IMG/VR virus record: IMGVR_UViG_3300031993_000018
Location: 89,614-153,613 of that record
Origin: a virus
Lineage: Duplodnaviria; Heunggongvirae; Uroviricota; Caudoviricetes
Strand: one strand, 5' to 3'
DNA length: 64,000 nucleotides
The position numbers were made by a program, and so were the translations under genes. Each line of letters begins with the position of its first letter. Position 1 is the stretch's first letter. Below are positions 2,662-60,343 of this stretch, piece by piece. The notes beneath the pieces are model-generated. The model ran no database searches. It had not been told where the DNA came from and saw only the letters and a program-made list of their open reading frames with translations.

Positions 2662-3792
2662 ATGCAGATTATAGACAATGTACAACTTGACTTCAGTGAT
2701 GTTCTCATTAAACCCAGGAGGTCAAGTATTGATTCGAGAAGTAAGGTAGATATTACCAGGGAGTACAAATTCAAATGGTGTCCATATAAAATCACAGGTA
2801 CTGGTATTATGCAGGCCAATATGGGAACCATAGGTAACTTTAAAGTGAGTGAGAAACTGTTGGAGAATGGTATGTTTGCTTGCCTTCACAAATATCATGA
2901 TACTGACAAACTGATTGATTTCTACAAGAAACTCATCCACAAAGGTGACGGAAGTATGAGAAGATGTCTCCTTGCAATAGGATTGAGAGATAATGGTATT
3001 GAGAAACTGAGGGAAATAAACAAGGCAACCGGTGAACAGATTGGTGTGAAGTTTGATGTTCCCAATGGATATATTCCCCAGGTAAAGGAAAGAGTCATTG
3101 AACTCAGGAAGGAGTTTCCAGATATGTTCATTATGGTTGGTAATGTGGTTACTGGTGATATCACAGAAGACCTGATTCTGTCAGGTGCAGACTGTGTTGC
3201 AGTAGGTATCGGTAATGGTGCCCAGTGTCTCACAAGAAGACAGACAGGTTGCGGAAGACCACAGTTCTCCGCTGTCGTAGAGTGTGCAGATGCAGCTCAC
3301 CAGGTCGGAGGTATGGTTTGTTCTGATGGTGGTATCACCTGTCCTGGAGATTTGGGTAAGGCATTTGGTGCCGGTGCGGATTTCATTATGATAGGAAGTC
3401 TGTTTGCAGGAACTGATGAGGCAGATGGTGAGACTGTTGAGAAGTATGTCTTCAATGGTGAGTATGACAAAATATTATATAATCCTGGTTATGTGTTTGA
3501 TCCCCATCTTGATAAGAAACAGTTCAAACAGTTCTATGGTATGAGTTCAACTCTGGCCCAGGAAAAGTTTGGTAATGGTAAACCCAGTTACCGTGCGAGT
3601 GAAGGTCGTGTAACTCTGATGCCTTATACAGGATCTGTTTGTGATGTGATTGAGGAACTCCTTGGAGGATTGAGGTCAACAATGACTTATATAGGTGCAT
3701 GGAAACTCAAGAATATTCCTAAACAGTGTGTGTTCTATAAGGTTCACAACCAACTGAACCAGACATATGAGAGATTTACAGTAGGTAAATAA
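2662..3792 (+). CDS. guaC: GMP reductase (IMPDH/GMPR family)
   Basis: N-terminal LDFSDVLIKPRRSS and the motif GADCVAVGIGNGAQCLTRRQTGCGRPQFSAVVECADAAH...SDGGI...GADFIMIGSLFAG match E. coli GuaC almost motif-for-motif, including the catalytic Cys loop. Confidence 0.85.
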   Translation: MQIIDNVQLDFSDVLIKPRRSSIDSRSKVDITREYKFKWCPYKITGTGIMQANMGTIGNFKVSEKLLENGMFACLHKYHDTDKLIDFYKKLIHKGDGSMRRCLLAIGLRDNGIEKLREINKATGEQIGVKFDVPNGYIPQVKERVIELRKEFPDMFIMVGNVVTGDITEDLILSGADCVAVGIGNGAQCLTRRQTGCGRPQFSAVVECADAAHQVGGMVCSDGGITCPGDLGKAFGAGADFIMIGSLFAGTDEADGETVEKYVFNGEYDKILYNPGYVFDPHLDKKQFKQFYGMSSTLAQEKFGNGKPSYRASEGRVTLMPYTGSVCDVIEELLGGLRSTMTYIGAWKLKNIPKQCVFYKVHNQLNQTYERFTVGK

Positions 3793-3830
3793 AAAAATGA
3801 GAGGTTGTTGCCTCTCATTTTTATTTTAAT
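3793..3830. terminator. Bidirectional intrinsic terminator between convergent genes
   Basis: aaaaaaaTGAGAGGttgttgCCTCTCAttttttatttt: a perfect 8-bp stem flanked by an A-run and a T-run. Confidence 0.6.
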
Positions 3831-4758
3831 CACCCCAGTATGTACCTGGTCTTGAACAATTAATTTCAACTTCATATTTATATCCTTTTGAGAAGTTGTC
3901 ATCATTGACATATCTCATAACAGTCTTGACATCATAAGGACTCATTGAGATGAACTCATCATATTTGACATAAGGTGCATCCATATAATCATCAGATTTC
4001 AGTGCATCTGCAATTTCCTTTGGAACATCCTGGGCAGCAATCTCCTCATAGTTGTCAGGATTTGCCTCAACATCTGCCTTGAGTGCCTCAACCCTTGCAT
4101 CATATGCTTCTTTCTTTGCCTTCTCTGCGGCAGTCCTGGCTTCCTCCTCTTCTTTTTCTATTCTTCTCTTTTCCTCCTCTTCCCTCTGCTTTTCAAGATA
4201 TTTGTCATAAAGTTCATCCACTTCCTTTGTAACTTCCTCAAGACCTGATGTCCTGATTTTGATGAACATTTCCAGAAAACCTATTGCATCATTGTTACTG
4301 CTGTAATATGATTTTGAATCTATTGTTGTGAAATAGAAGTATTTGTTTTCCTCATTCCAAAGAACATAATAGAGGTCACCCTTGTTTGTGAAGCATGATT
4401 TAACTTTCTCAATATTGGGTTCTGACAATACTTCAAGGAGTCTGTCCACTTTACCTTCTGTACCGAATGTATGTGTGTCCAAATATGCCTTACTTGGTTT
4501 ATGAGAAATATAATCTCTACCTCCACATTCATATAATTTATCACATATTTCATCAGGAACAACAGCCTTGATTTCCTTATATGCAAAATTATTAAAAGTT
4601 TTTACTTTGAAAGATATGTTTCCCAGGAACTCATAATCCTTTGAAAGGAAACCATTCTTCATCTGTGAATAACTCAGATTCCTGATGTTTCCATTTTCAA
4701 GTTCCTTTATTGAAATAGATTCCTTAAGAAAGTTGTAACTATTAAAGTTTGGTACCAT
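3826..4758 (-). CDS. Hypothetical protein with a central E/K/R-rich coiled coil (minus-strand moron)
   Basis: 310 aa ORF on the opposite strand, lying between a bidirectional terminator and a divergent promoter region. Contains an EKQREEEEKRRIEKEEEEARTAAEKAKKEA segment. Confidence 0.55.
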   Translation of the reverse strand: MVPNFNSYNFLKESISIKELENGNIRNLSYSQMKNGFLSKDYEFLGNISFKVKTFNNFAYKEIKAVVPDEICDKLYECGGRDYISHKPSKAYLDTHTFGTEGKVDRLLEVLSEPNIEKVKSCFTNKGDLYYVLWNEENKYFYFTTIDSKSYYSSNNDAIGFLEMFIKIRTSGLEEVTKEVDELYDKYLEKQREEEEKRRIEKEEEEARTAAEKAKKEAYDARVEALKADVEANPDNYEEIAAQDVPKEIADALKSDDYMDAPYVKYDEFISMSPYDVKTVMRYVNDDNFSKGYKYEVEINCSRPGTYWGD

Positions 4759-4788: not shown

Positions 4789-5889
4789 ATGTATTTATGT
4801 ATGAATAAGAATTTTTTAGAAGATTTTTTGAAGACTTACAGACCTTCAGGGTTTGAACAGGAAGGTGCTGAAGTGTTTGTCAGTAATGCCTGTGGACTCA
4901 AAGGAGTCAAGAAAGAGTTTATTGATAAGATGTGGAATGCATGTGTGAGTGTGGGTAGTGAAAAGGAGGATGCACTGAAAATCCTCATCTCCGGTCACTC
5001 TGATCAGAACTGTCTCATTGTGACTGAAATCACAAAGAATGGTTTCCTCAAGTATGCAACCCAGGGTGGATTCTCTCCAAGGACAGTAATTGATTCAGAC
5101 CTCTTTGTCATCACAAACAATGATGGTGTGAAGAAACTTATCCCCTGCTTCTGTAGTTATAAAGCAATACATATAGAAAAACCGGATGACAGAAAGAAAT
5201 GTCCAGAACATAAGGATCTCTATCTTGATTTGGGATGTACATCCAGGGAACAGGTTGAGAAACTCGGTGTACATATAGGTGACCTGGTTGTATTCAACAA
5301 CAGTGGTCTGAATATGGACTTTGGTCCTGATGGCAACTACATTGTAGGTTCAGGTCTTGATGATGGTGTTGCTTGCGGAATCGTTTATGATGTCCTGAAG
5401 AAACTTGATGAGAATGAACTCAAGGAGATGAACATCAGGGTATATGGTGCATGCATCACATCAGAGGAAACTGGTGCCAGGGGTGTTGGTCCTGTAGTAA
5501 GAAAGGTTCAGCCACATATCTCCATAGATATTGATGTATGTCATGACTGCACCAAGGAGATTGGTGAGGATGAAGGCCGGATTGCAAAGATGGGTGATGG
5601 TGCTGTCCTGAACTATGGTCCTGACAAATACAGACCTCTCAATGAAGACTTGAGACAGATTGCAAAGGATTATGACATCAAGTTGCAACTCATTGCCGGC
5701 AAGGCAGGAGGTACAAACACCAACAACATCCAGATGATGTCAGACAACTGTGCCACAACCCTGTTGAGTATCCCTTGCAGATATATGCACAGCGGAACAC
5801 ATGAGATGGTCAATAAGGATGACATTGATGGTTGTGGTCAGCTCATATACAAGTTCATCAACAAGGTAGATCCAAAGAAGTATGTATAA
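4789..5889 (+). CDS. M42-family metallopeptidase (glutamyl aminopeptidase / cellulase-M like)
   Basis: Segments GHSDQNCLIVTEITKNGFLKY, GSGLDDGVACGIV, ITSEETGARG and RYMHSGTHEM line up with the conserved metal-ligand blocks of M42/FrvX peptidases. Confidence 0.6.
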   Translation: MYLCMNKNFLEDFLKTYRPSGFEQEGAEVFVSNACGLKGVKKEFIDKMWNACVSVGSEKEDALKILISGHSDQNCLIVTEITKNGFLKYATQGGFSPRTVIDSDLFVITNNDGVKKLIPCFCSYKAIHIEKPDDRKKCPEHKDLYLDLGCTSREQVEKLGVHIGDLVVFNNSGLNMDFGPDGNYIVGSGLDDGVACGIVYDVLKKLDENELKEMNIRVYGACITSEETGARGVGPVVRKVQPHISIDIDVCHDCTKEIGEDEGRIAKMGDGAVLNYGPDKYRPLNEDLRQIAKDYDIKLQLIAGKAGGTNTNNIQMMSDNCATTLLSIPCRYMHSGTHEMVNKDDIDGCGQLIYKFINKVDPKKYV

Positions 5890-26258: not shown

Positions 26259-27111
26259 TATGGAAGGATACAGTATAAATCCATTAGACTATCTTAACCA
26301 GGCACTTAATTATGCACATCGTTGGAAACTTGATGTCAATCTTGAAAATCCGACCACAATACAGGACAAACTGTTCTGGTTGAATTTCTATGACCAGGAC
26401 ATCAGAAAGTCCAGATGTGCAGATAAACTGTTAGTCAGGGAGTATGCAAAAGAAAAACTTGGTTTTGACATCAACATACCAATATTAAAGGTGTATGACA
26501 GTGTTGATGACATAAACCTGGATGAACTCCCAGATAAGTTTGTCATAAAGTGTAATCATGGAAGTTCAATGAACATTGTTGTCAAAGACAAGAGTTCATT
26601 TGACTTTGAAAAAGCAAAGGACAAACTCAGGAAATGGATGAGTATTGATTATGCACTATATAATCATTATGAGTTCCATTACCATGACATACAACACAAG
26701 ATTCTGATTGAGGAATACAAGGAAGATCTCAAGACCAATGAACTCAGGGATTACAAGTTCAGCTGTTTCAATGGTGTTCCCAAAGTTATGTGTGCAATCA
26801 CAAACCTGTTCAAACACAATGAGACAACCAACTATTATGATATGGATTTCAATCCATTGACTGATATGTCCCTGATATATCATCCTGCAAACTACAATGT
26901 CCAGATTGATAAACCCAAAGGGTTTGAAAAGATGATAGAGTATGCCACAAAACTCTCCCAGGACTTTAAGTATGTCAGGGTAGATTTCTTCAGTATCAAT
27001 GGTGATGTGTATCTGAGTGAGATGACATTCACACCACATGCCATAATCTGGTTGAGATTCAATAACCCCAAATATGACCTTGAACTGGGTAATATGCTTA
27101 ATATAAAGTAA
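26251..27111 (+). CDS. TupA-like ATP-grasp protein
   Basis: IQDKLFWLNFYD, ADKLLVREYAKEKLG, FVIKCNHGSS, DYKFSCFNGVPK and FTPH blocks match what I recall of the TupA-like ATP-grasp family. Confidence 0.55.
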   Translation: MSDMEGYSINPLDYLNQALNYAHRWKLDVNLENPTTIQDKLFWLNFYDQDIRKSRCADKLLVREYAKEKLGFDINIPILKVYDSVDDINLDELPDKFVIKCNHGSSMNIVVKDKSSFDFEKAKDKLRKWMSIDYALYNHYEFHYHDIQHKILIEEYKEDLKTNELRDYKFSCFNGVPKVMCAITNLFKHNETTNYYDMDFNPLTDMSLIYHPANYNVQIDKPKGFEKMIEYATKLSQDFKYVRVDFFSINGDVYLSEMTFTPHAIIWLRFNNPKYDLELGNMLNIK

Positions 27112-35968: not shown

Positions 35969-37288
35969 ATGAAACTAACATTAGAGAATATTACAATCAA
36001 AGACCACAAGATTTATGACCCGGAAGGAAACTTCAGGGGAGAAATCTTGTATGAGTACATTCGTGGTTCTCATCTGTATTCAACCAATGTGGAGACATCA
36101 GATGAAGACCAGGGAGGTATCTACATTATGCCTAACAGCACCATATTGGGTCTTGGTCTTGACTATCAGAATGAGATAAAGGATAAGAGTAATGACAAGT
36201 GCATCTGGGAGTTGGGAAGATTCCTGGAACTTGCCCTGTCTTCAAACCCAACTGTCCTGGAGGCACTCTTTGTTCCTGGTGATAAGGTCATCTATGAACA
36301 TCCTGTCATCAAGGAGATCCGTTCACACCGTGATGAGTTTATCACCAAGAAGTGTTTTGCACCATTTGGAGGTTATGCTTCAAGTCAGATAAAGAAGGCT
36401 CAGGGTCAGAACAAGAAGATCCACTGGGATATTGCCCAGATGGTAAGGAAGACTCCTATGGACTTCTGTTATACCTTGAAGAACCAGGGTAGTCAGCCTA
36501 TGCAGGACTGGTTGGATGAAAGAGGACTTGATCAGAGAAACTGTGGTCTGGTCAATATTCCCAATATGCCTGATATGTTCGGTGTGTATTATGACTGGGG
36601 TCAGCACATCAGACTTGCCGGTATCACCAAGGAGTATTTCACCAATAAGGAGAATTACTACAAGGATAAGTTTATCAAGACTATGGACATGTATCTTGGA
36701 AATGAATATATCCTCCATGAGGATGGAAACCTTGAGGATGAACTTGAATATATCTGGGATCATCACTCTGAACCTCATGGTGGTTACTGTGGAATCATCT
36801 CACCCAATGAGGATTCCAACACAGTAAGGTTCTCTTCTGTTGTCAAGGGTGAGAAACCCATCTGTTATATGTCTTACAATGCCAATGCATATATATCACA
36901 TTGTAAGGAGTATAGGGAGTATGAGGACTGGAAGGAACACAGAAATCCAGCAAGGTATGAATCCAATATGGAGGGAGAGAAGTCAGGCAATGCAGATATG
37001 AAATATGACTGCAAGAATATGATGCACTGCTTCAGGTTGATGGCAATGGCAAAGGAGATTGCAGAAGGAAAGGGTGTGATCCTGGATCGCGCTGGTATTG
37101 ACAGGGAGTTTCTCCTGGATGTTAGAAACCGTAAGTATGGTTATTCTGAACTCCAGAAGAAGATGCTTGACCTGAAGGATGAGATGGATGCTGCCATTGA
37201 GAAATCTACCATCAAGGATGAGATTGATCCCCAAATGGTCAATGACCTCCTCCTGGAAGCAAGAAAACATTTTAATTCAAAAGATTAA
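35969..37288 (+). CDS. Pol-beta superfamily nucleotidyltransferase (GSHLYST...SDED motif)
   Basis: Near the N-terminus, IRGSHLYSTNVETSDEDQGG fits the GS...(S/T)D.D nucleotidyltransferase active site. The ~440 aa protein probably carries a helical substrate-binding extension. Confidence 0.5.
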   Translation: MKLTLENITIKDHKIYDPEGNFRGEILYEYIRGSHLYSTNVETSDEDQGGIYIMPNSTILGLGLDYQNEIKDKSNDKCIWELGRFLELALSSNPTVLEALFVPGDKVIYEHPVIKEIRSHRDEFITKKCFAPFGGYASSQIKKAQGQNKKIHWDIAQMVRKTPMDFCYTLKNQGSQPMQDWLDERGLDQRNCGLVNIPNMPDMFGVYYDWGQHIRLAGITKEYFTNKENYYKDKFIKTMDMYLGNEYILHEDGNLEDELEYIWDHHSEPHGGYCGIISPNEDSNTVRFSSVVKGEKPICYMSYNANAYISHCKEYREYEDWKEHRNPARYESNMEGEKSGNADMKYDCKNMMHCFRLMAMAKEIAEGKGVILDRAGIDREFLLDVRNRKYGYSELQKKMLDLKDEMDAAIEKSTIKDEIDPQMVNDLLLEARKHFNSKD

Positions 37289-37585: not shown

Positions 37586-38035
37586 ATGAAACCGGAGAAT
37601 AGGAATACATTGAAGAAAAGTGTGGAAGCTCTCACTACCCTTGGGTTCAAACCTGAAAACATTATGGTAACCGGAAGTATAGCTCTGGATATTGTTGGAG
37701 TACTTCCCCCGAACAGATGGACTCATGACATTGATTTCATCATCAAAATGGATGACAAGTCTTGGCATTGCATGAAACTGCTTGAAGCAATTGAAAAGGC
37801 AGATATGGGTAAGGATAGCAAGTATCCTGATGACAAGAATATGGTCTTCCTGAAGTTAAAGGGTATCAGTACTAACATATGGAGACACACTCCCAACTTT
37901 GACTGGTCAACCATCAAGGATACAGAGACTGGTGTTATGGTGGCAACAGTGTCTCATATTATTCAGGCAAAGAAGGCATATGGTCGCCAAAAGGACTATG
38001 AGGATCTTGCCGCCATTTGCAAATACATTCTTTGA
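37586..38035 (+). CDS. Hypothetical protein, possible minimal nucleotidyltransferase fold
   Basis: VTGSIALDIVGV....THDIDFII resembles the GS...D.D motif of MNT-type nucleotidyltransferases. Weak. Confidence 0.3.
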   Translation: MKPENRNTLKKSVEALTTLGFKPENIMVTGSIALDIVGVLPPNRWTHDIDFIIKMDDKSWHCMKLLEAIEKADMGKDSKYPDDKNMVFLKLKGISTNIWRHTPNFDWSTIKDTETGVMVATVSHIIQAKKAYGRQKDYEDLAAICKYIL

Positions 38036-38266
38036 TAATGATATTCAAGTTCAATGGAGGTAGAGGTGCCATCCTTTGTGACAAATGTGGAATCATCCTC
38101 AAGTCAGGAGATGACATTCCAAAATATGTCTGGGATGCAGTCAGGAAAGGTACTGTAAGTGACCTCCCTGGTATGTGTTGTGATGACAACTGTGAAAGAA
38201 GTAAGAAAATTCTTGGAGACATCTACACAGGTAACACCAAAGATGTAGGACAATAAAATTAAGATT

Positions 38267-39112
38267 ATGTATTTCAAAAACCTAAAAGAAAAGTGCGAAT
38301 ATTACCGTTCGCTTACTGATTATAAACTGATGTCAAACTCTTATGTCCTGGTGATGGTGGATGGTCACTGTTTCAGCAAGATGATCAAGAATAAGTTTGA
38401 CAAACCATTTGATGATGAGTTCATCAATATGATGAATGAGACTGCAAAGTATCTGTGTGAACAGGTACAGGGAGTTAAGTTTGCATACACACAGTCTGAT
38501 GAGATTTCACTTCTCATCACAGACTTTGACACACCAGTAACCGATGCATACTTTAGTTTCAGACTCTGTAAGATGCAGTCACTCATTGCTGCACTGGCAA
38601 CTGCCAAGTTCAACCAGTTATATGCCATCCATAACATTGGTAAGGAAGTGAGTGGTGGCAGCAACAAGATTGAACTTAAGAAGACTATTCCACTCTGTAC
38701 ATTTGACTGTAAGGTATGGACTGTTCCAAATGCAAATGACGCCTATGCCTGGTTCCTCTACAGACAGACTGACTGTATCAAGAACTCAAAGGCACAGACA
38801 GCCCAGACATATCTTCCACACAAACAGTTGGTGGGTCTGACAGCAGATGATATGATTGCCAAACTCAAGGATGAGCAGAACATTGACTGGTATGAGTTTG
38901 TCAATGGTAAGAAGTATGGAAGACTCATCAGGAAAGTGGAGACTCCTATGGAGAAAGACCTTTCCAATGGACTACACATTGAATACATAAGGAATGTATG
39001 GACACCTGTTGAGATAACAGACTTGAGAGAGGATGGGTCACAAGTGAGAGATCTGATTCCTGAACTGTTCAGACCTGGTGTTAATATAAAAGAAGAAATC
39101 ACAGAAGAATGA
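38267..39112 (+). CDS. Thg1-like protein (tRNA-His guanylyltransferase family 3'-5' nucleotidyltransferase)
   Basis: YVLVMVDGHCFSKMIKNKFDKPFDDEFINMMNETAKYL and FAYTQSDEISLLI parallel the Thg1/TLP N-terminal catalytic blocks (R.DGR.FH.F...KP.D....M...A...AYG.SDE.S..L). Confidence 0.65.
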   Translation: MYFKNLKEKCEYYRSLTDYKLMSNSYVLVMVDGHCFSKMIKNKFDKPFDDEFINMMNETAKYLCEQVQGVKFAYTQSDEISLLITDFDTPVTDAYFSFRLCKMQSLIAALATAKFNQLYAIHNIGKEVSGGSNKIELKKTIPLCTFDCKVWTVPNANDAYAWFLYRQTDCIKNSKAQTAQTYLPHKQLVGLTADDMIAKLKDEQNIDWYEFVNGKKYGRLIRKVETPMEKDLSNGLHIEYIRNVWTPVEITDLREDGSQVRDLIPELFRPGVNIKEEITEE

Positions 39113-47150: not shown

Positions 47151-48368
47151 ATGATTAAACTTACAAAAGGTAAAGTTACCGCTATCATTTGCGGTGTGTT
47201 CACAATCATCGTTCTCTGTCTGTTGGGCAGTATAGGTGAGGATGTAAAGAACAAGACAATCGTTGTTAACCAGTATCCCATTTCAGGTCGTATGGCCTAT
47301 TGGACTGAACCTGGTTTCAAGTGGCAGTTGTTCGGTAAGACAACTACTTATTACAAGACCGAGCAGTTGTGGTTCGGTGGTAAGGACATCAATGACAACC
47401 CCATTGGATCTCCCATCCCGGTGAAGTTCTATGACGGTTCTGATGGTATGATTTATGGTTCTCTCCGTGTTGAGCTTCCTACAGACACAAAGTATCTGGC
47501 AAAGATTCAGAGAGAGTATGACAGTATGGACCGACTCATGAATGACCTGGTTAAGCAGACAGTAAGTAAGGTTATATATGCGACAGGTGCTTTGATGACA
47601 GGATTTGAGTCTTATGCAGAGAAAAAGAATGACTTCTTGGAGTATGTTCAGGACCAGCTCGCTCATGGTGTATATAAGACAAATGTTAGGATAGAAGAGG
47701 TTAAGGACCAGGCAGGTAATATAGAGAAACTCAAGATTGCCAGTCTTATACCCGACACAGCATCTGCAAATGGTTACAAGAGATCTGAGACTTCACCCTT
47801 TATGGATTATGGAATTAAGGTGAACCAGGTATCTATTTCAACAATTGACTATTCACAGAAGGTTAAGGACCAGATTGCACAGCAGCAGGAGTCAAATATG
47901 TTGGCACAGACTGCAAAGGCCAAGGCTGCAGCCGCAGCACAGGAGGCAATCCGTGCAGAGGAGGAAGGTAAGGCAAAGGCTGCTCAGGCAAAGTGGGCAC
48001 AGGAGACCATCAAGGCTACAGAGGTGACAAAGGCAGAGCAGGAGTATGAGGTTGCCGTCACCCAGGCAAAGCAGCAGAGGGAGACCGCCAAGCTTGCAGC
48101 AGAGAAGGCAGAGTTTGATAAGAAGAGAATTATCGCCCAGGGTGAGGCTGAGGCCGCAGCTAACAGAGCAAAGGTCAATGCTGGTCTGACTCCTCAGGAG
48201 AGGGCAGAGTGGGACTTCAAGACCAAGGTTGGTGTCGCAGAGGCAATCTCCAAGGTTAATCTTCCTACAATCGTAATGACCGGTTCAGGTTCAAATGGTA
48301 GCTCATCAGCACTGGATGCAATGGGTCTGAAGATGCTGACCGATCTGGCAGACAAAATGTCCAAGTAA
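47151..48368 (+). CDS. SPFH/band-7 (stomatin/HflKC/flotillin-like) membrane protein
   Basis: N-terminal TM, central SPFH-like region, and a long Ala/Glu/Lys/Gln-rich coiled coil (AKAKAAAAAQEAIRAEEEGKAKAAQAKWAQE...) typical of HflK/flotillin C-termini. Confidence 0.6.
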   Translation: MIKLTKGKVTAIICGVFTIIVLCLLGSIGEDVKNKTIVVNQYPISGRMAYWTEPGFKWQLFGKTTTYYKTEQLWFGGKDINDNPIGSPIPVKFYDGSDGMIYGSLRVELPTDTKYLAKIQREYDSMDRLMNDLVKQTVSKVIYATGALMTGFESYAEKKNDFLEYVQDQLAHGVYKTNVRIEEVKDQAGNIEKLKIASLIPDTASANGYKRSETSPFMDYGIKVNQVSISTIDYSQKVKDQIAQQQESNMLAQTAKAKAAAAAQEAIRAEEEGKAKAAQAKWAQETIKATEVTKAEQEYEVAVTQAKQQRETAKLAAEKAEFDKKRIIAQGEAEAAANRAKVNAGLTPQERAEWDFKTKVGVAEAISKVNLPTIVMTGSGSNGSSSALDAMGLKMLTDLADKMSK

Positions 48369-51357: not shown

Positions 51358-52197
51358 ATGGTTATAAATTACACCAACCTTAATGAGAACATCAACATCT
51401 ATTTCAAGGAGATCCGCAACTTCGCATCCCTGACAAGAGAAGATGAGGTAAGACTGTTCTCAAGAATCAAGACAGGTGACAAGTCAGCACAGGCTGAAAT
51501 CTTCAACAGGATGGCCAAGCTGGCGGTCAACATTGCCAAGACATACACAGGTGATGCAGACCTTTTGGAAGATCTCATCCAGGAGGCAAACATTGGTATC
51601 CTTACCGCCATTGACAAGTTTGACCTCAATTCCGGTTTCAGATTTTCATCATATGCCCGTTACTGGATGAAGGCCGCCATTTCCAAGTATCTTGATGAAA
51701 TGGGTGTGGTACGTCACTGCAATCCCCATCTTGTTGACCTGGCCAACAAAATCCGTGAGAAGTTCTACAAGGAGAACCAAAGGGATATCACCAGTGTGGA
51801 ACTGATGGATATGTTGGAGGATGCAGGTGAGGTGGTTGATGACATCAAGTCAATCACCAGCATCACCAATGTGAGGATTGATCTTCCTTATGATTGTGAT
51901 GAGTCCGGAAAGCCAAAGGGCGAATATGGAGACTTCGCAGACCGTACTGCCTGTGACAATGGGTTTGTAGAAAAGGAAAGAGCCGAGGAACTTTCAGAAG
52001 ACATCAGACGAAGACTCTCAAGACTCACTCCGAGGGAGCAGCAGTTGGTCCTGTTGATGTACGGTTTCGTCACCGGAGAAGAAATGGGTTATGACGCTGT
52101 TACAGAAAGGTGGAATGAAGGTAAGCCCGAGAAGGAACAGCTCACACAGGAGAGAGTCCGTCAGATCATCAAGGGTGCACTCAAAAAGATGAAGTAA
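51358..52197 (+). CDS. Sigma-70 family RNA polymerase sigma factor
   Basis: Region 2 LLEDLIQEANIGILTAIDKFDLNSGFRFSSYARYWMKAAI (compare DLIQEGNIGLMKAVDKFD...F.TYA.WWIRQAI); region 4 LTPREQQLVLLMYGF...ERVRQIIKGALKKM. Confidence 0.7.
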   Translation: MVINYTNLNENINIYFKEIRNFASLTREDEVRLFSRIKTGDKSAQAEIFNRMAKLAVNIAKTYTGDADLLEDLIQEANIGILTAIDKFDLNSGFRFSSYARYWMKAAISKYLDEMGVVRHCNPHLVDLANKIREKFYKENQRDITSVELMDMLEDAGEVVDDIKSITSITNVRIDLPYDCDESGKPKGEYGDFADRTACDNGFVEKERAEELSEDIRRRLSRLTPREQQLVLLMYGFVTGEEMGYDAVTERWNEGKPEKEQLTQERVRQIIKGALKKMK

Positions 52198-55147: not shown

Positions 55148-55500
55148 TAATGTAAGGGAATAAGATATGAAGAAAAGATTCAATGTTATCAGACAGGTCC
55201 TCGTCACAACAGAGGACATCTGGGAGGCAGAGTCAGAACAGGAGATCCTGGACAGGCTTGAGGATGGAACATCACTTGCCGGGGAAATATCTCTCTTGGG
55301 ACTCAAGTCAAGACCGGGAAGGATTGTCAAGTATCAGTTCCCGACTGATCCAAAAGTAAAAGAGTTAAATAAACCGTTGTGATGTTGTTTTAAGTCCTAA
55401 AGATTCATACCGCAATCATCAAAAATAAAATATTGATTATTACTTTTAAGAATCTTGTTAATCCGCTTTAAGACAACATCACAACATAAAAATCAAAACA

Positions 55501-55755
55501 ATGGCAATACGAAAAGTAACAAATGAGGAACTTCGTCAGATGATGAAGGAGGGAAAGGTGACTTTCCAGTACAAGAAGAAGGACGGTTCAATCCGTCAGG
55601 CAACAGGTACACTCAAACCTGAGCTCATTGAGAAGAAATCACAAGGAGGTCCTTGTTATCCCAAGGAAGCAGGATATTCAGTCTATTGGGATATGGATAA
55701 GAGGTGGTACAGAGTCTATGCGGAGTCTCAGCTTGTTGGTGTTGTCGAAGGTTAA
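55501..55755 (+). CDS. Small stand-alone domain protein, homologous to the C-terminal domain of leader-family member 58458..58892
   Basis: VTFQYKKKDGSIRQATGTLKPELIEKKSQGGPCYPKEAGYSVYWDMDKRWYRVYAESQLVGV aligns with IVRFQYRKK....RTAWGTRKSEVITKIPHGGECPPKKVGYSLYFDMEKSDWRVFWSGRLIGV. Confidence 0.5.
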   Translation: MAIRKVTNEELRQMMKEGKVTFQYKKKDGSIRQATGTLKPELIEKKSQGGPCYPKEAGYSVYWDMDKRWYRVYAESQLVGVVEG

Positions 55756-55766
55756 TCACAATCAAT

Positions 55767-56354
55767 ATGAATAATATAGTCAGAGAATCTATAATGGCAG
55801 GAATTCTCATTGGTCTGGGTGCATATGGTTACCTGGCCCTGGGTGGAATCCCCGGTGCAATCATCTTTGCCTTCGGTCTGATATGTGTTGTCCTTATGGA
55901 AGCATATCTCTATACCGGAAAGGCAGGAGTCCTCACCAACATCAAAAATGTGACTACCATCTGGTTTTTCAACATCCTTGCCTGTGGACTCATAGGTCTG
56001 ATGGTCTGGTATCTGGGTGGAAAACCTGTTGAGGTAGCACAGGAAATTGTCGCAAACCGTCTCGCGACAGAACCTCTCAAGGTATTCCTCAAGGCACTTG
56101 GTTGCGGACTCATCATTGATCTCTCCTGTGCCTCATACAGAGGTAGCAAGAGTCTCCTTCCCATTCTTTTCGGTGTCCCATTGTTCATCATACTGGGATT
56201 CTACCATTCAATTGCAGATGTGGTTTACATTGTTGCTGCATGGGACTGGTCAAAGGATCTCATCTGGTATTACCCCCTGATTGTAGTGGGTAACTATGTG
56301 GGATGCAACATCAGAAGACTGGTATATGTAACCAGATGGATTCAGATAGGATAA
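55767..56354 (+). CDS. Multi-TM channel-like protein, possible FNT (formate/nitrite transporter) family
   Basis: GLICVVLMEAYLYTG resembles FocA SLGLILCVVCGADLFTS (L-F-T signature). LGFYHSIADVVYI resembles FocA SGFEHSIANMFM (conserved His of TM5). At 196 aa it is shorter than canonical FNT proteins. Confidence 0.35.
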   Translation: MNNIVRESIMAGILIGLGAYGYLALGGIPGAIIFAFGLICVVLMEAYLYTGKAGVLTNIKNVTTIWFFNILACGLIGLMVWYLGGKPVEVAQEIVANRLATEPLKVFLKALGCGLIIDLSCASYRGSKSLLPILFGVPLFIILGFYHSIADVVYIVAAWDWSKDLIWYYPLIVVGNYVGCNIRRLVYVTRWIQIG

Positions 56355-56535: not shown

Positions 56536-57159
56536 ATGGGTAAGAAAATAATTACCATCATCATTGATGATGACAAGAAGAGCATGAGTGTTGACATTAT
56601 CAAGGAGAAAGAGACCAATGTGGGAAAGTACATTGTCACCACCTCAAACTTCTCCGGATATGGAAAGGATATCCTGGATGATGCGTATGTGATAGGAATC
56701 CCCTGCAAGATTCTGACAGAACCATATCAGAAAAGAAAAAAGAACATCCTGGGTCATTATGAAGAGACCAAGGAGGTCATTGATGTCATGTCAATGGTGA
56801 CAGGTAAGACATATACAATCCCGACAGGTTGGGGAAACATATTTGACACCCTGGAGGAAGCAAACAACATTGCAAAAACCAAGGGAACATACAATCCTTC
56901 AACCAAAAACCTCATAGGTAAAAAGTACTGGCCATATAGTAACTCATTCAACAAGGATTTGGTGACCGGTGCAAGGTATAATCTTGTTGATAAAGAGTGC
57001 AGGATAGTCTCTGAACCGTTCAGGGAAAAGACCGGTGACCCGCAGTTCAAGAATGTGGAATGTGATTTCATTCTCGTGTATCATGAGGGAATGGTCTACA
57101 GGGTACAGTTCGGTGAGTGGGGACTTCAGGATCGTTTATATCGTTTAACCAAAAAATAA
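56536..57159 (+). CDS. Hypothetical protein, paralog family B
   Basis: About 40 % identical to 57783..58364 (KKIITI.I..D...NVGK..V.T.N......DAY..G.PCKIL.EPY...). Confidence 0.5.
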   Translation: MGKKIITIIIDDDKKSMSVDIIKEKETNVGKYIVTTSNFSGYGKDILDDAYVIGIPCKILTEPYQKRKKNILGHYEETKEVIDVMSMVTGKTYTIPTGWGNIFDTLEEANNIAKTKGTYNPSTKNLIGKKYWPYSNSFNKDLVTGARYNLVDKECRIVSEPFREKTGDPQFKNVECDFILVYHEGMVYRVQFGEWGLQDRLYRLTKK

Positions 57160-57782: not shown

Positions 57783-58364
57783 ATGGCAAAGAAGATTATA
57801 ACAATTCAGATTGAGATTGATGTCCCCGAGTCAAATGTGGGAAAGTTTATGGTTCCAACACACAACTATGGTGAAGTGGATGAAAATGATGCATATCTGG
57901 CCGGTGTTCCCTGCAAGATTCTCTCTGAACCTTATATGGCAACAGTGAAGACTTTCTGTGGGATACAGGAAAGAAGGGAACTTGTTGATGTGAAGTCAAT
58001 GGTGTCCAACATCAAGTACACAATTCCCACAAGTCTGTTCGGTCCGGTCTATGACACACTGGCAGAGGCCAATAAGCATGCAAAGATTCAGGGTGTTGAG
58101 AACCCCAGGATGAAGGATCTCATAGGAAAGAGGTACTACCCCTTCGACAATTCCTGGAACAAGGATTTGGTCAATGGAAAGTGGCATAACCTTATTGACA
58201 GTGACTGTACAATCATAGGAATCCCCTTCAAGGAACTGACGGGTGATCCCTTTCCGGATGTAATAGACAAAAAGATGGTCTTTGTCCATGTCCTTTCGAA
58301 TGGACAGGCACACAGAGTCCTCTATGGTGACTGGGGTCTGATTCCTGGTAAGTTAAGGAAATAA
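57783..58364 (+). CDS. Hypothetical protein, paralog family B
   Basis: Homolog of 56536..57159; followed by a terminator plus TTTTGTTATATTTAA cassette. Confidence 0.5.
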   Translation: MAKKIITIQIEIDVPESNVGKFMVPTHNYGEVDENDAYLAGVPCKILSEPYMATVKTFCGIQERRELVDVKSMVSNIKYTIPTSLFGPVYDTLAEANKHAKIQGVENPRMKDLIGKRYYPFDNSWNKDLVNGKWHNLIDSDCTIIGIPFKELTGDPFPDVIDKKMVFVHVLSNGQAHRVLYGDWGLIPGKLRK

Positions 58365-58457: not shown

Positions 58458-58892
58458 ATGAGTATTTGGGATGATATGCTTGATAAGGGTGTCGGTGAAA
58501 AGGAGGCTCTGGAAGACAGGGCTCAGTTCAGGGATGACATCACTCCTGAAGATTTGAATGAGATGCTCCTTTCCGGAATTGTCCGTTTCCAATACAGAAA
58601 GAAGGCAAAGAAAGGTCAGCCGGAGGACAGTGGTGAGGTCAGGACTGCCTGGGGTACCAGGAAGTCAGAAGTGATCACCAAGATTCCTCACGGTGGTGAA
58701 TGTCCCCCCAAGAAAGTCGGTTATTCTCTCTACTTTGATATGGAGAAATCCGATTGGAGGGTGTTCTGGTCAGGAAGACTGATTGGAGTATGGGACAAAG
58801 TTTACACTGAACCTGAATTCACCAGGCTGTATGCCAAACTGAAGGCAGAAGAGGCCAAGGAGAAAAAGGAAGAGGTGATACCTGAAGAATAA
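58458..58892 (+). CDS. MSIWGDMLD-leader family member 5 (leader fused to the 55501-type domain)
   Basis: MSIWDDMLDKGVGEKEALED..., then a domain homologous to 55501..55755, then a K/E-rich tail. Confidence 0.6.
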   Translation: MSIWDDMLDKGVGEKEALEDRAQFRDDITPEDLNEMLLSGIVRFQYRKKAKKGQPEDSGEVRTAWGTRKSEVITKIPHGGECPPKKVGYSLYFDMEKSDWRVFWSGRLIGVWDKVYTEPEFTRLYAKLKAEEAKEKKEEVIPEE

Positions 58893-59271: not shown

Positions 59272-59883
59272 ATGGATAAACTTAGTTATGCATTAGGTGT
59301 CAGCGTTGGTCAGAACCTGATAACACAGTTCGGAATCAAGGATTTGAATTTCGAGGAATTCACAGAGGGATTGAAAGTAATGTTCGGTAAGGTAGAAAAC
59401 AAGATGTCTATTGATGACATCAACAATACCATAAATGAACACATAAAGAAGATCCATGATGAGAAGAAAAAAGAACAGAAGAAGATCAATGAGAATAACC
59501 TGAAGGAAGGAAAGGCATATCTTACAGAGAATGCCGAGAAGGATGATGTTACTACAACCAAGTCAGGACTCCAGATGAAGGTACTTAAGGCAGGACCTGG
59601 ATACATCTCTCCGGGACCACATTCAAGAGTAAGAGTCCACTATGAAGGCAAACTCATTGATGGAACAGTGTTTGATTCATCATACCAGAGAGGTGAACCT
59701 GTTGAGTTTGGCCTGGATCAGGTGATTCCTGGTTGGACAGAAGGTGTACAACTGATGAAGGAGGGAGATGTATTTGAATTCACCATCCCATCTGAATTGG
59801 GTTATGGTGAGGTAGGAGTTCCAGGTCATATTCCTGGTAATAGTGTCCTGATCTTCAAGGTGGAACTTATAAAGATATTGTAA
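59272..59883 (+). CDS. FKBP-type peptidyl-prolyl cis-trans isomerase
   Basis: GLQMKVLKAGPG...VHYEGKLIDGTVFDSSYQRGEPVEFGLDQVIPGWTEGVQLMKEGDVFEFTIPSELGYGEVGVPGHIPGNSVLIFKVELIKI is a canonical FKBP domain. Confidence 0.75.
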   Translation: MDKLSYALGVSVGQNLITQFGIKDLNFEEFTEGLKVMFGKVENKMSIDDINNTINEHIKKIHDEKKKEQKKINENNLKEGKAYLTENAEKDDVTTTKSGLQMKVLKAGPGYISPGPHSRVRVHYEGKLIDGTVFDSSYQRGEPVEFGLDQVIPGWTEGVQLMKEGDVFEFTIPSELGYGEVGVPGHIPGNSVLIFKVELIKIL

Positions 59884-59884
59884 T

Positions 59885-60343
59885 ATGGGAATGACATTAT
59901 TTTATCCAGGGACTTTTGATCCCTTTACAACAGGACATGCCAACATTGTCCAGAGAGCAGTTAATATGGGTTTCAATGTTGTCATAGGTATTGGCAAGAA
60001 TTCGGGCAAGACTCCAATGTTCAGTCCTGAACAGAGACTGGAGGCAATCTCAAGTTATTATGCAGGAAATCCCAATGTGAAGGTTGTGGAATATGACGGT
60101 CTTACTGCGGATGCGGCAGCGAAACTTGCAGACGGTATATTGAGAGGTATCAGGAACGGTACCGACTTTGACTATGAGAACACAATCGCCCATGTGAACA
60201 GACAGGTGAACAGGATAGAGACTGTTTTCCTCCCTGCAATCGAAGGATACTTCTTTGTCAGCAGCACTCTTGTCAAGGAACTGTACAGAAATGGGGAGGA
60301 TGTTTCAAATTATATCATAGACACTTTCAAACCTTATCTGTAA
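59885..60343 (+). CDS. coaD: Phosphopantetheine adenylyltransferase (CoaD/PPAT), copy 2
   Basis: YPGTFDPFTTGHANIV, ILRGIRNGTDFDYE, FVSSTLVKEL. About 55-60 % identical to copy 1. Confidence 0.75.
   Translation: MGMTLFYPGTFDPFTTGHANIVQRAVNMGFNVVIGIGKNSGKTPMFSPEQRLEAISSYYAGNPNVKVVEYDGLTADAAAKLADGILRGIRNGTDFDYENTIAHVNRQVNRIETVFLPAIEGYFFVSSTLVKELYRNGEDVSNYIIDTFKPYL

Follow-up and report, generated by a model that had tools for sequence, protein, structure and literature searches.

The closest described relatives of the protein reported here are channels from the family known as formate/nitrite transporters (FNTs), in which the positions of the central constriction and of the cytoplasmic slit of the pore have been defined by Mukherjee et al. 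(PMC5525234) and for which T91, H209, K156 and N172 were identified as residues required for translocation by FocA (Kammel et al., PMC9380403). Throughout the family, K156 is about 80% conserved, Asn172 about 89% and Asn262 94-100%, and the replacement of Asn172 by Gly is a signature of the YfdC-α and YfdC-β subfamilies (PMC5525234). In all eight described prokaryotic subfamilies (FocA, FdhC, NirC-α/β/γ, HSC and YfdC-α/β), the first transmembrane helix (TM1) is preceded by a segment of 25-55 residues (PMC5525234). A precedent for small-solute transporters on phages is provided by the PnuC proteins of gut jumbo phages (PMC11662467), which are likewise host-derived small membrane transporters, although their fold and substrate are unrelated to those of FNTs. 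Here we describe a gene for a short FNT-family channel in a stretch of viral DNA of 64,000 nucleotides, hereafter termed the window, which covers positions 89,614 to 153,613 of the IMG/VR record IMGVR_UViG_3300031993_000018 (Caudoviricetes). An earlier note on this DNA had proposed that the phage encodes a compact channel of this family, a proposal that is now backed by the sequence profile, the predicted fold, the residues of the pore and the phage-like context. In the explanation that we favour, and to which as a whole we assign a probability of roughly 0.6, a huge-phage lineage has captured the gene from a rumen Bacteroidales host and retained it as an auxiliary channel for monovalent weak-acid anions that would aid a long infection.

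Family membership and predicted structure of the phage protein

Profile searches and structure prediction confirm, far beyond chance, that the protein of 195 residues belongs to the FNT family. It matches the Pfam family PF01226 (Form_Nir_trans) with 65 bits at a gathering cut-off of 34.6 (E = 8.5e-18), in an alignment that spans residues 4-180 of the protein and positions 21-230 of the 240 positions of the profile. A phmmer search of the PDB with the single sequence found nothing, and a profile constructed from 48 homologues reaches FocA from V. cholerae (3KLY) in the same database with an E-value of 3.8e-6. No family was matched in a scan of the protein against PHROGs.

The alignment of 48 homologues also served as input for the prediction of a monomeric model by AlphaFold2, which is characterized by a predicted local distance difference test (pLDDT) value of 86.3 and a predicted TM-score (pTM) of 0.85. 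Its helices, located at residues 3-25, 27-43, 59-83, 86-100, 103-127, 131-142, 148-158 and 163-179, constitute six transmembrane helices, in line with the six-helix protein that had been anticipated from the sequence, with TM2 being broken after residue 43, where it is followed by a coil (residues 44-58), and TM5 being broken at residues 143-147. The region of the Ω-loop is the least certain stretch of the model. In a Foldseek comparison with the PDB, the 50 matches listed contain FNT proteins only (FocA, HSC, NirC and PfFNT), at a probability of 1.00 and with query TM-scores of 0.68-0.81. The comparison with FocA, which had been suggested as a check of the proposed identity, has thus revealed an FNT/aquaporin-like fold with two interrupted helices.

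The open reading frame (ORF) is real, whereas its earlier assigned length of 196 residues had included the stop codon. In a program-made list, the ORF reaches further in the 5' direction to a GTG at position 55704. We favour the ATG at position 55767 because the extension to the GTG overlaps with the upstream gene and because the ATG agrees with the N-termini of all close homologues (with P0001 comprising 195 residues and beginning with MNNIVRESIM). The gene has a GC content of 0.45 and a GC content at third codon positions (GC3) of 0.47.

Conservation of pore residues

For the assignment of residues we relied on the gap-free parts of the profile alignment to 3KLY, in which the V. cholerae number equals the E. 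coli number minus 1; FocA residues are given in E. coli numbering unless they refer to 3KLY. Conservation was counted over 133 sequences, with the 132 subfamily representatives sharing at most 50% identity. Both motifs that had originally drawn attention to the protein are found at the expected places: L-Y-T-G (L48-Y49-T50-G51) aligns to L88-F89-T90 of 3KLY, which correspond to L89/F90/T91 of the E. coli protein, and G-F-Y-H-S-I-A (G144-F-Y-H147-S-I-A150, nucleotides 56196-56216) to G205-F-E-H208-C-I-A211, which places H147 at the position of E. coli H209. With F34, F140, H147 and A150, the protein has the canonical FFHA of FocA (F75/F202/H209/A212) at its central constriction, and the cytoplasmic slit consists of L38, L48 and T50 together with the hydrophobic I117 (FocA L79/L89/T91/V175). 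At other positions, F90 of FocA is replaced by Y49, E208 by Y146, and S210 is matched by S148. Within the subfamily, F34 and T50 are each found in 131 of the 133 sequences, L48 and G51 in 128, L38 in 125, G114 and H147 in 132, F140 and N176 in 130, A150 in 127 and D151 in 118, with position 49 being either Tyr or Phe in 132. The conservation of F34, L38, L48, Y49 (as Tyr or Phe), T50, F140, H147, A150 and D151 thus ranges from 89 to 99%, with the exception of R98, where the position is basic in 119 sequences (94 Arg and 25 Lys). In TM6, N176 probably corresponds to FocA N262, as judged from the G-N-x-x-G motif and a superposition of the whole chain, the HMMER alignment of this helix not being credible.

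Of the four residues required for translocation by FocA, three are retained, with K156 conservatively replaced by R98. The structures of FocA from E. coli, Salmonella and V. cholerae (3KCU, 3KLY, 3Q7K and 9G49) share with the phage protein the F/F/H/A constriction, the L-[FY]-T motif of the Ω-loop and the G-F-x-H-S/C-I-A motif of the S-loop. The phage protein in turn is only about 20% identical to FocA, contains 195 instead of about 280 residues, lacks the N-terminal segment of about 30 residues, has shorter loops, carries the replacements K156 to Arg, N172 to Gly, E208 to Tyr and N213 to Asp, and its gene is not located beside pflB. In FocA, the mutation N213D is tolerated and exchanges of E208 have little effect (PMC9380403).

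A large subfamily of short FNT proteins

The protein is short because the N-terminal cytoplasmic segment of about 30 residues and several loops are missing, whereas every transmembrane helix is kept, with TM1 beginning at residue 3 of the model. Its first residue presumably corresponds to about residue 31 of FocA, an offset that is based on the E. coli sequence and was checked against the residues T34, L37 and F75 named in PMC5525234. The combination of an FFHA constriction with a Gly at position 172 is found in none of the eight described subfamily patterns. The YfdC-α/β proteins, which share the Gly in place of Asn172 in TM4, have the longest N-termini of the family (42-55 residues) and YIHV or FLHL constrictions, in contrast to the phage protein with its FFHA constriction and almost no N-terminus. 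An assignment to FocA, NirC or HSC was considered and rejected, as neither a signature nor the genomic context supports it and the curated models fail. Similarly, no sequence signature and no nir or asr neighbourhood links the phage protein to the substrates of NirC, HSC (FNT3), PfFNT and LCIA, which are nitrite, hydrosulfide, lactate and bicarbonate, respectively.

A word-indexed search yielded 827 homologues, hundreds of which contain 187-193 residues at 63-69% identity, and those named by their source carry the label 'formate/nitrite transporter family protein [Bacteroidales bacterium]'. In an exhaustive search of representatives at 50% identity, 1383 clusters passed a threshold of E ≤ 1e-3, with 517 of them also passing E ≤ 1e-10; among the 150 cluster matches listed, nearly all full-length proteins comprise 170-255 residues, mostly 185-215, and shorter ones appear fragment-like. 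The phage protein is thus a member of a known family and not a categorically new system, and the suggestion that it might be a minimal or novel variant holds in its first part only: the protein is minimal, yet part of a large subfamily of short FNTs that has already been annotated automatically. A scan of genomes with one representative per species identified 140 loci, the best 80 of which are all from metagenome-assembled genomes (MAGs) of Bacteroidales from the rumen or ruminant gut (RUG, RGIG, UBA and Ca. Cryptobacteroides), at 59-70% identity, so that the short FNT is common among members of the order to which the host presumably belongs.

Origin and maintenance of the gene in phages

The short FNTs of rumen Bacteroidales (about 185-215 residues) share length and invariant residues with the phage protein and represent the donor group. 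Compared to these, the copies from phages group in separate clades and show derived substitutions, a lower GC content and a location in phage gene blocks. The identity of the phage protein to the rumen Bacteroidales copies amounts to 59-71%, and two of the closest bacterial proteins, P0007 (71%) and P0021 (67%), reside in ordinary Bacteroidales contexts. In a neighbour-joining tree, the phage copies make up two clades, one with the protein of the window, P0001-4, P0006 and P0012-19 and another with L011, P0008-11 and P0015, both of which are nested within the clade of rumen Bacteroidales. The residues Y82, V106, K109, C121, N58 and I155 are derived, common to both phage clades and rare in bacteria, which suggests a single capture followed by relocation, although two captures from the same donor would also be compatible with the tree. 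A different position of the gene is seen in the 411,604 bp contig IMGVR_UViG_3300028888_000043, where the FNT gene (L011, 10001-10570) is found between homologues of the window genes at 37586-38035 and 38267-39112, whereas the equivalent spot of the window (38038-38256) contains only an ORF of 72 residues. Since the positions differ in otherwise collinear genomes, the gene appears to have moved like a cassette.

Once acquired, the gene was evidently maintained. Its surrounding block, consisting of a WYL_2 gene, the FNT gene, a second WYL_2 gene and an FKBP gene, is kept in contigs whose FNTs are 69-79% identical. Between phage copies, the pairwise ratio of nonsynonymous to synonymous substitution rates (dN/dS) ranges from 0.11 to 0.21 at dS values of 0.9-2.1, indicating purifying selection of comparable strength as in pairs of phage and bacterial genes. 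The bacterial copies have a GC content of 0.57-0.64 in four of five cases (0.47 in the fifth, L037) with GC3 values mostly of 0.68-0.86, and loci of the host gene in Bacteroidales have 0.51-0.64, compared to 0.39 in the window. The intermediate GC content of the phage gene points to a long residence in phages. Conserved synteny, dN/dS and the shifted GC content taken together argue for a long residence under purifying selection and hence for a function that is useful to the phage. With close host homologues, a location in a phage and purifying selection, the gene is most likely a host-derived auxiliary metabolic gene.

Probable phage nature of the window

That the window is part of a huge phage is well supported by its gene content, its architecture and its synteny with IMG/VR contigs. 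It has a GC content of 39% and contains about 125 tightly packed ORFs, nearly all on one strand, which mostly encode 60-280 residues with a median of about 130. Matches were found to a Dda-like helicase, a nucleotidyltransferase, a DNA methyltransferase, a sigma-70 factor, two WYL_2 proteins, an FKBP isomerase, CoaD and an RNA ligase. The helicase is closest to that of a crAss-like phage (34% identity) and, among phages, the nucleotidyltransferase (35969-37288, phrog_388) is matched best by those of the Prevotella Lak megaphages of 540-550 kb (41% identity), which hints at a distant relationship or at gene sharing with megaphages. About 30 consecutive genes (17.0-48.4 kb) have homologues of 33-81% identity, mostly in collinear order, in a stretch of 20 kb of IMGVR_UViG_3300028888_000043, and for about 50 genes of the window, homologues in syntenic order exist in contigs that are from IMG/VR or phage-like. 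The contigs L006 and L035/L036 repeat the block of sigma-70, WYL_2, FNT, an ORF of 180-190 residues, WYL_2, an ORF of 80 residues and FKBP, followed by CoaD in L006.

The window holds a single tRNA-Ser (anticodon GCT, 1149-1237) and a number of host-like genes, which include a GMP-reductase-like protein (2662-3792; NF003470 at 393.6 bits with a cut-off of 397), an M42 aminopeptidase (4789-5889), a TupA-like ATP-grasp protein (26260-27111), an SPFH/Band-7 protein (47151-48368) and the pantetheine-phosphate adenylyltransferase CoaD (59885-60343).

Genomic context of the FNT gene

The location of the gene, of its upstream neighbour and of the structural elements of the encoded protein are listed in Table 1.

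Table 1. Coordinates of the FNT gene, the preceding WYL_2 gene and elements of the predicted channel within the window.
Feature	Position	Strand	Remarks
Short FNT-family channel gene	55767..56354	+	ATG to TAA, 588 nt, 195 codons and stop
WYL_2 (PF10902) gene	55501..55755	+	Ends 11 nt before the FNT start; Pfam
TM1 (aa 3-25) and TM2a (aa 27-43)	55773..55895	+	AlphaFold2 helices; F34 = FocA F75 (central constriction), L38 = L79 (cytoplasmic slit)
Ω-loop motif L48-Y49-T50-G51	55908..55919	+	Aligns to FocA L89-F90-T91; residues 44-58 non-helical in the model
TM3 (aa 59-83)	55941..56015	+	AlphaFold2 helix; N69 invariant
R98	56058..56060	+	Aligns to the Lys of the periplasmic vestibule (E. coli FocA K156, V. 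cholerae K155)
TM4 (aa 103-127) with C113-G114	56073..56147	+	G114 = FocA N172, I117 = V175
TM5a (aa 131-142, F140 = F202), S-loop G144-F-Y-H147-S-I-A150-D151, TM5b (aa 148-158)	56157..56240	+	
S-loop correspondences			H147 = FocA H209, A150 = A212, D151 = N213; alignment to 3KLY
TM6 (aa 163-179) with G175-N176-x-x-G179	56253..56303	+	N176 probably equivalent to FocA N262

The upstream WYL_2 gene is probably co-transcribed with the FNT gene, and the adjacency of both genes is kept in the related phage contigs L035/L036. Promoter-like sites around the FNT gene are found at the level of shuffled sequences (7 compared to 5.9 ± 2.2), and five terminator-like sites, all on the minus strand, compare to 1.9 ± 1.6 in shuffles. 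Matched neighbours in the region of 53.8-60.3 kb are WYL_2, FKBP and CoaD, with the sigma-70 factor also being located near the FNT gene, and most neighbours match nothing.

The FNT block is flanked by two WYL_2 genes (PF10902, phrog_1086), the one preceding the FNT gene and another at 58458-58892. The region between them contains the ORFs 56536-57159 (207 residues) and 57783-58364 (193 residues), which are alike in size and N-terminus, have no family match and are probable paralogues, related contigs containing one copy of this ORF type. The protein encoded at 59272-59883, an FKBP-type peptidyl-prolyl isomerase, scores barely above the cut-off of the equivalog model for BamJ of the β-barrel assembly machinery (101.4 compared to 100 bits), and related phage contigs likewise have its gene beside the FNT block. 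An RpoD-like sigma-70 factor with regions 1.2, 2 and 4, which is kept in L035/L036, is encoded at 51358-52197, about 3.5 kb upstream of the FNT gene. A perfect inverted repeat of 12 bp, TTGTGATGTTGT/ACAACATCACAA, at 55377-55388 and 55473-55484 flanks the AT-rich stretch between genes that precedes WYL_2 and FNT; the repeat has no further exact copies within the window and may act as a regulatory hairpin or operator. A cytidylyltransferase-like neighbour that had been considered as a link between the FNT and NAD salvage was rejected, the gene being CoaD (TIGR01510, 137 compared to 103 bits).

FNT genes in other viruses

We identified short FNTs in at least 37 IMG/VR contigs, 21 of which have a length of 100 kb or more and 10 of 200 kb or more, the largest comprising 673 kb; since the underlying pattern scans need exact motif matches, such counts define a lower bound. 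A second FNT-bearing group (L012, L014, L015, L021-L023, L028, L031 and L033) contains mostly huge phages with a one-strand architecture and a GC content of about 24-41%, mostly 27-30%. Its FNTs are 34-43% identical to the protein of the window and keep the motifs L-Y-T-G, C-G, GFYHSIAD and G-N-x-x-G-C, and DnaK, DnaJ, Hsp20 and an ADP-ribosylglycohydrolase are encoded at a distance of no more than about 5 kb from their genes. Some members of this second group also encode a TROVE/Ro-like protein of 484 residues.

Among the viral structures in BFVD, one protein of 191 residues, A0A8S5NWF3, has the same fold (TM-score 0.73); it is 22% identical to the protein of the window and its label 'Formate/nitrite transporter [Siphoviridae sp. 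ctTnV63]' is an automatic annotation only. A megablast search of INPHARED phages with 12 kb around the FNT gene gave no match and a tblastn search with the protein a single weak one (MT839063, 30% identity), indicating that known phages, including the Lak megaphages, do not carry this gene at the sensitivity of tblastn. Our literature searches found no paper on FNTs encoded by phages or viruses, and the jumbo-phage papers that were checked contain no mention of formate, nitrite or FNTs. That FNTs recur in huge phages from rumen and gut has thus apparently not been reported so far.

Discussion

From the homology with FocA, NirC, HSC and PfFNT we infer a pentameric state, a substrate, a direction of flux and a benefit for the phage, drawing on the FNT biology described in PMC9380403, PMC5525234, PMC12559229 and PMC8914244. 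The protomer of 195 residues would enter the inner membrane of the host and assemble as a homopentamer, with each protomer containing its own narrow hydrophobic pore. In the outer vestibule, R98 would draw a small monovalent weak-acid anion, which would then cross the two constrictions, a cytoplasmic slit formed by L38, L48, T50 and I117 and a central constriction formed by F34, F140, H147 and A150, either in its protonated form or accompanied by a proton, in a process mediated by the pair T50-H147. Because the N-terminal segment with the helix that gates FocA is missing, the channel is expected to act as an ungated, bidirectional valve. During a long infection the phage copy might supplement or replace the host's own FNT, and thereby keep fermentation-acid anions, with formate as default candidate, and the cytoplasmic pH in a range fit for the production of energy and nucleotides. 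The likeliest benefit would be that acid-anion export and pH are sustained while host gene expression is taken over. We favour a mechanism involving weak-acid anions because the protein retains FFHA, the Ω-loop motif L-x-T, the His at the centre of the pore and the basic vestibule residue.

Several observations weigh against this interpretation. The cut-offs of the curated NCBIfam models are missed widely (38 compared to 232.3 bits for TIGR00790 and 19.5 compared to 290.1 bits for the FocA equivalog TIGR04060), TM2b appears as coil in the AlphaFold2 model with a pLDDT of about 69 for residues 51-60, and the N-terminal cytoplasmic helix is absent. The position of FocA N172 is occupied by a Gly, which is atypical for FNTs and resembles YfdC, and compared to characterised FNTs, E208 is replaced by Tyr and K156 by Arg. 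In light of Gly172, Tyr208, Arg156, the missing N-terminal helix and the coil at TM2b, selectivity or gating may differ from characterised FNTs. In the 62 genome loci and the contexts of four further proteins that were inspected, the bacterial homologues have no conserved gene neighbour. AnmK, the best candidate, is found in 9 of 62 loci, and the variable neighbours also comprise a TonB-dependent receptor, an M24 peptidase, a GH95 protein and a Na/Pi cotransporter, so that the substrate cannot be read from the gene context. Alternatively, the short subfamily might pass a non-classical small acid or a neutral solute, with the phage exploiting this housekeeping function. By the replacements of Asn172 by Gly (132/133) and of Glu208 by Tyr or Pro and by its lack of an N-terminal helix, the subfamily differs from all characterised FNTs, whose curated models it fails by far, and the YfdC groups with a Gly at position 172 are probably of other specificity (PMC5525234). 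We nevertheless regard this possibility as improbable, with the central constriction being the canonical FFHA and not the YIHV or FLHL of YfdC and with the Ω-loop, the His and the basic residue of the vestibule all being kept. A classical substrate could also move in the opposite direction, if the channel mainly takes up an external anion for phage biosynthesis, such as formate as one-carbon donor for purines, bicarbonate or nitrite. FNTs are bidirectional and formate is re-imported by FocA (PMC8914244), the phage carries genes related to purine nucleotides, such as the one for the GMP-reductase-like protein, and the replication of about 400 kb would require nucleotides in large amounts. Such nutrient import deserves consideration but is unlikely in our view, since neither the phage nor the bacterial loci contain a formate-using enzyme (PurT, Fhs or FDH) or a nitrite or bicarbonate enzyme beside the gene, and the direction of the flux is not readable from the sequence.

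As a small multi-pass protein of the inner membrane, encoded by a phage and assigned to no PHROG family, the phage protein might take part in lysis or permeabilise the membrane, be it as holin-like pore, as superinfection-exclusion or as depolarising factor. Judged by established structures, the pore of FNTs is too narrow for the release of endolysin. The phage protein retains the narrow-pore constriction residues, is 60-71% identical to the product of a gene at ordinary chromosomal loci of rumen Bacteroidales MAGs, and evolves under a purifying selection like that of pairs of phage and bacterial genes. Moreover, no match of Pfam or PHROG families to an endolysin, spanin or holin was found in the region of 53.8-60.3 kb. 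With a narrow pore that is the same as in the copies of the hosts and no lysis match among the scanned neighbours, we give a lytic role hardly any credence, and the earlier assertion that the protein could equally act as holin-like pore finds no support. A gene of no benefit to the phage, as result of a recent capture, or a window that is bacterial or misassembled, would be consistent with the results for the ten large ORFs tested, none of which strongly matches a capsid, terminase or tail gene and where the only, weak match to a major head protein (E = 9e-5) concerns the minus-strand ORF 3826-4758, and with the cassette-like change of the genomic position in the relative of 411 kb. This, too, is very unlikely, given the synteny that is kept across contigs with FNTs of 69-79% identity, the dN/dS values of 0.11-0.21, the shifted GC content, the about 50 syntenic genes in IMG/VR or phage-like contigs, the GC content of the window compared to the Bacteroidales loci, its one-strand architecture and the median ORF length of about 130 residues. 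We thus prefer the interpretation as auxiliary weak-acid anion channel acquired from a rumen Bacteroidales host.

A further-reaching proposal, which we put forward tentatively and consider doubtful in its full extent, would be that huge rumen and gut phages from at least two unrelated lineages have each taken up a stripped-down, ungated FNT as phage-controlled valve for fermentation acids or another small anion. One of these lineages would be derived from Bacteroidales, the other would be the low-GC group with its FNTs near DnaK, DnaJ and Hsp20. The short subfamily might in this case represent a minimal FNT with Gly172 and no N-terminal gate, whose substrate or gating is unlike that of FocA, NirC, HSC and PfFNT, and the phage protein would become the first FNT of a virus for which a role in infection can be demonstrated.

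At a length of 195 residues, the phage protein is near the smallest possible FNT, containing the full pore and no N-terminal gate. It thus offers a convenient minimal system for the debate on whether FNTs are channels or transporters and a handle on the large subfamily of short FNTs with its at least 517 clusters at 50% identity. If our interpretation is correct, a channel for anions and weak acids would be added to the few membrane transporters found on phages, which would suggest that very large phages of rumen fermenters manage the acid or anion balance of their hosts during infection. This would bear on the flux of short-chain acids and of formate, a substrate of methanogens, in the rumen.

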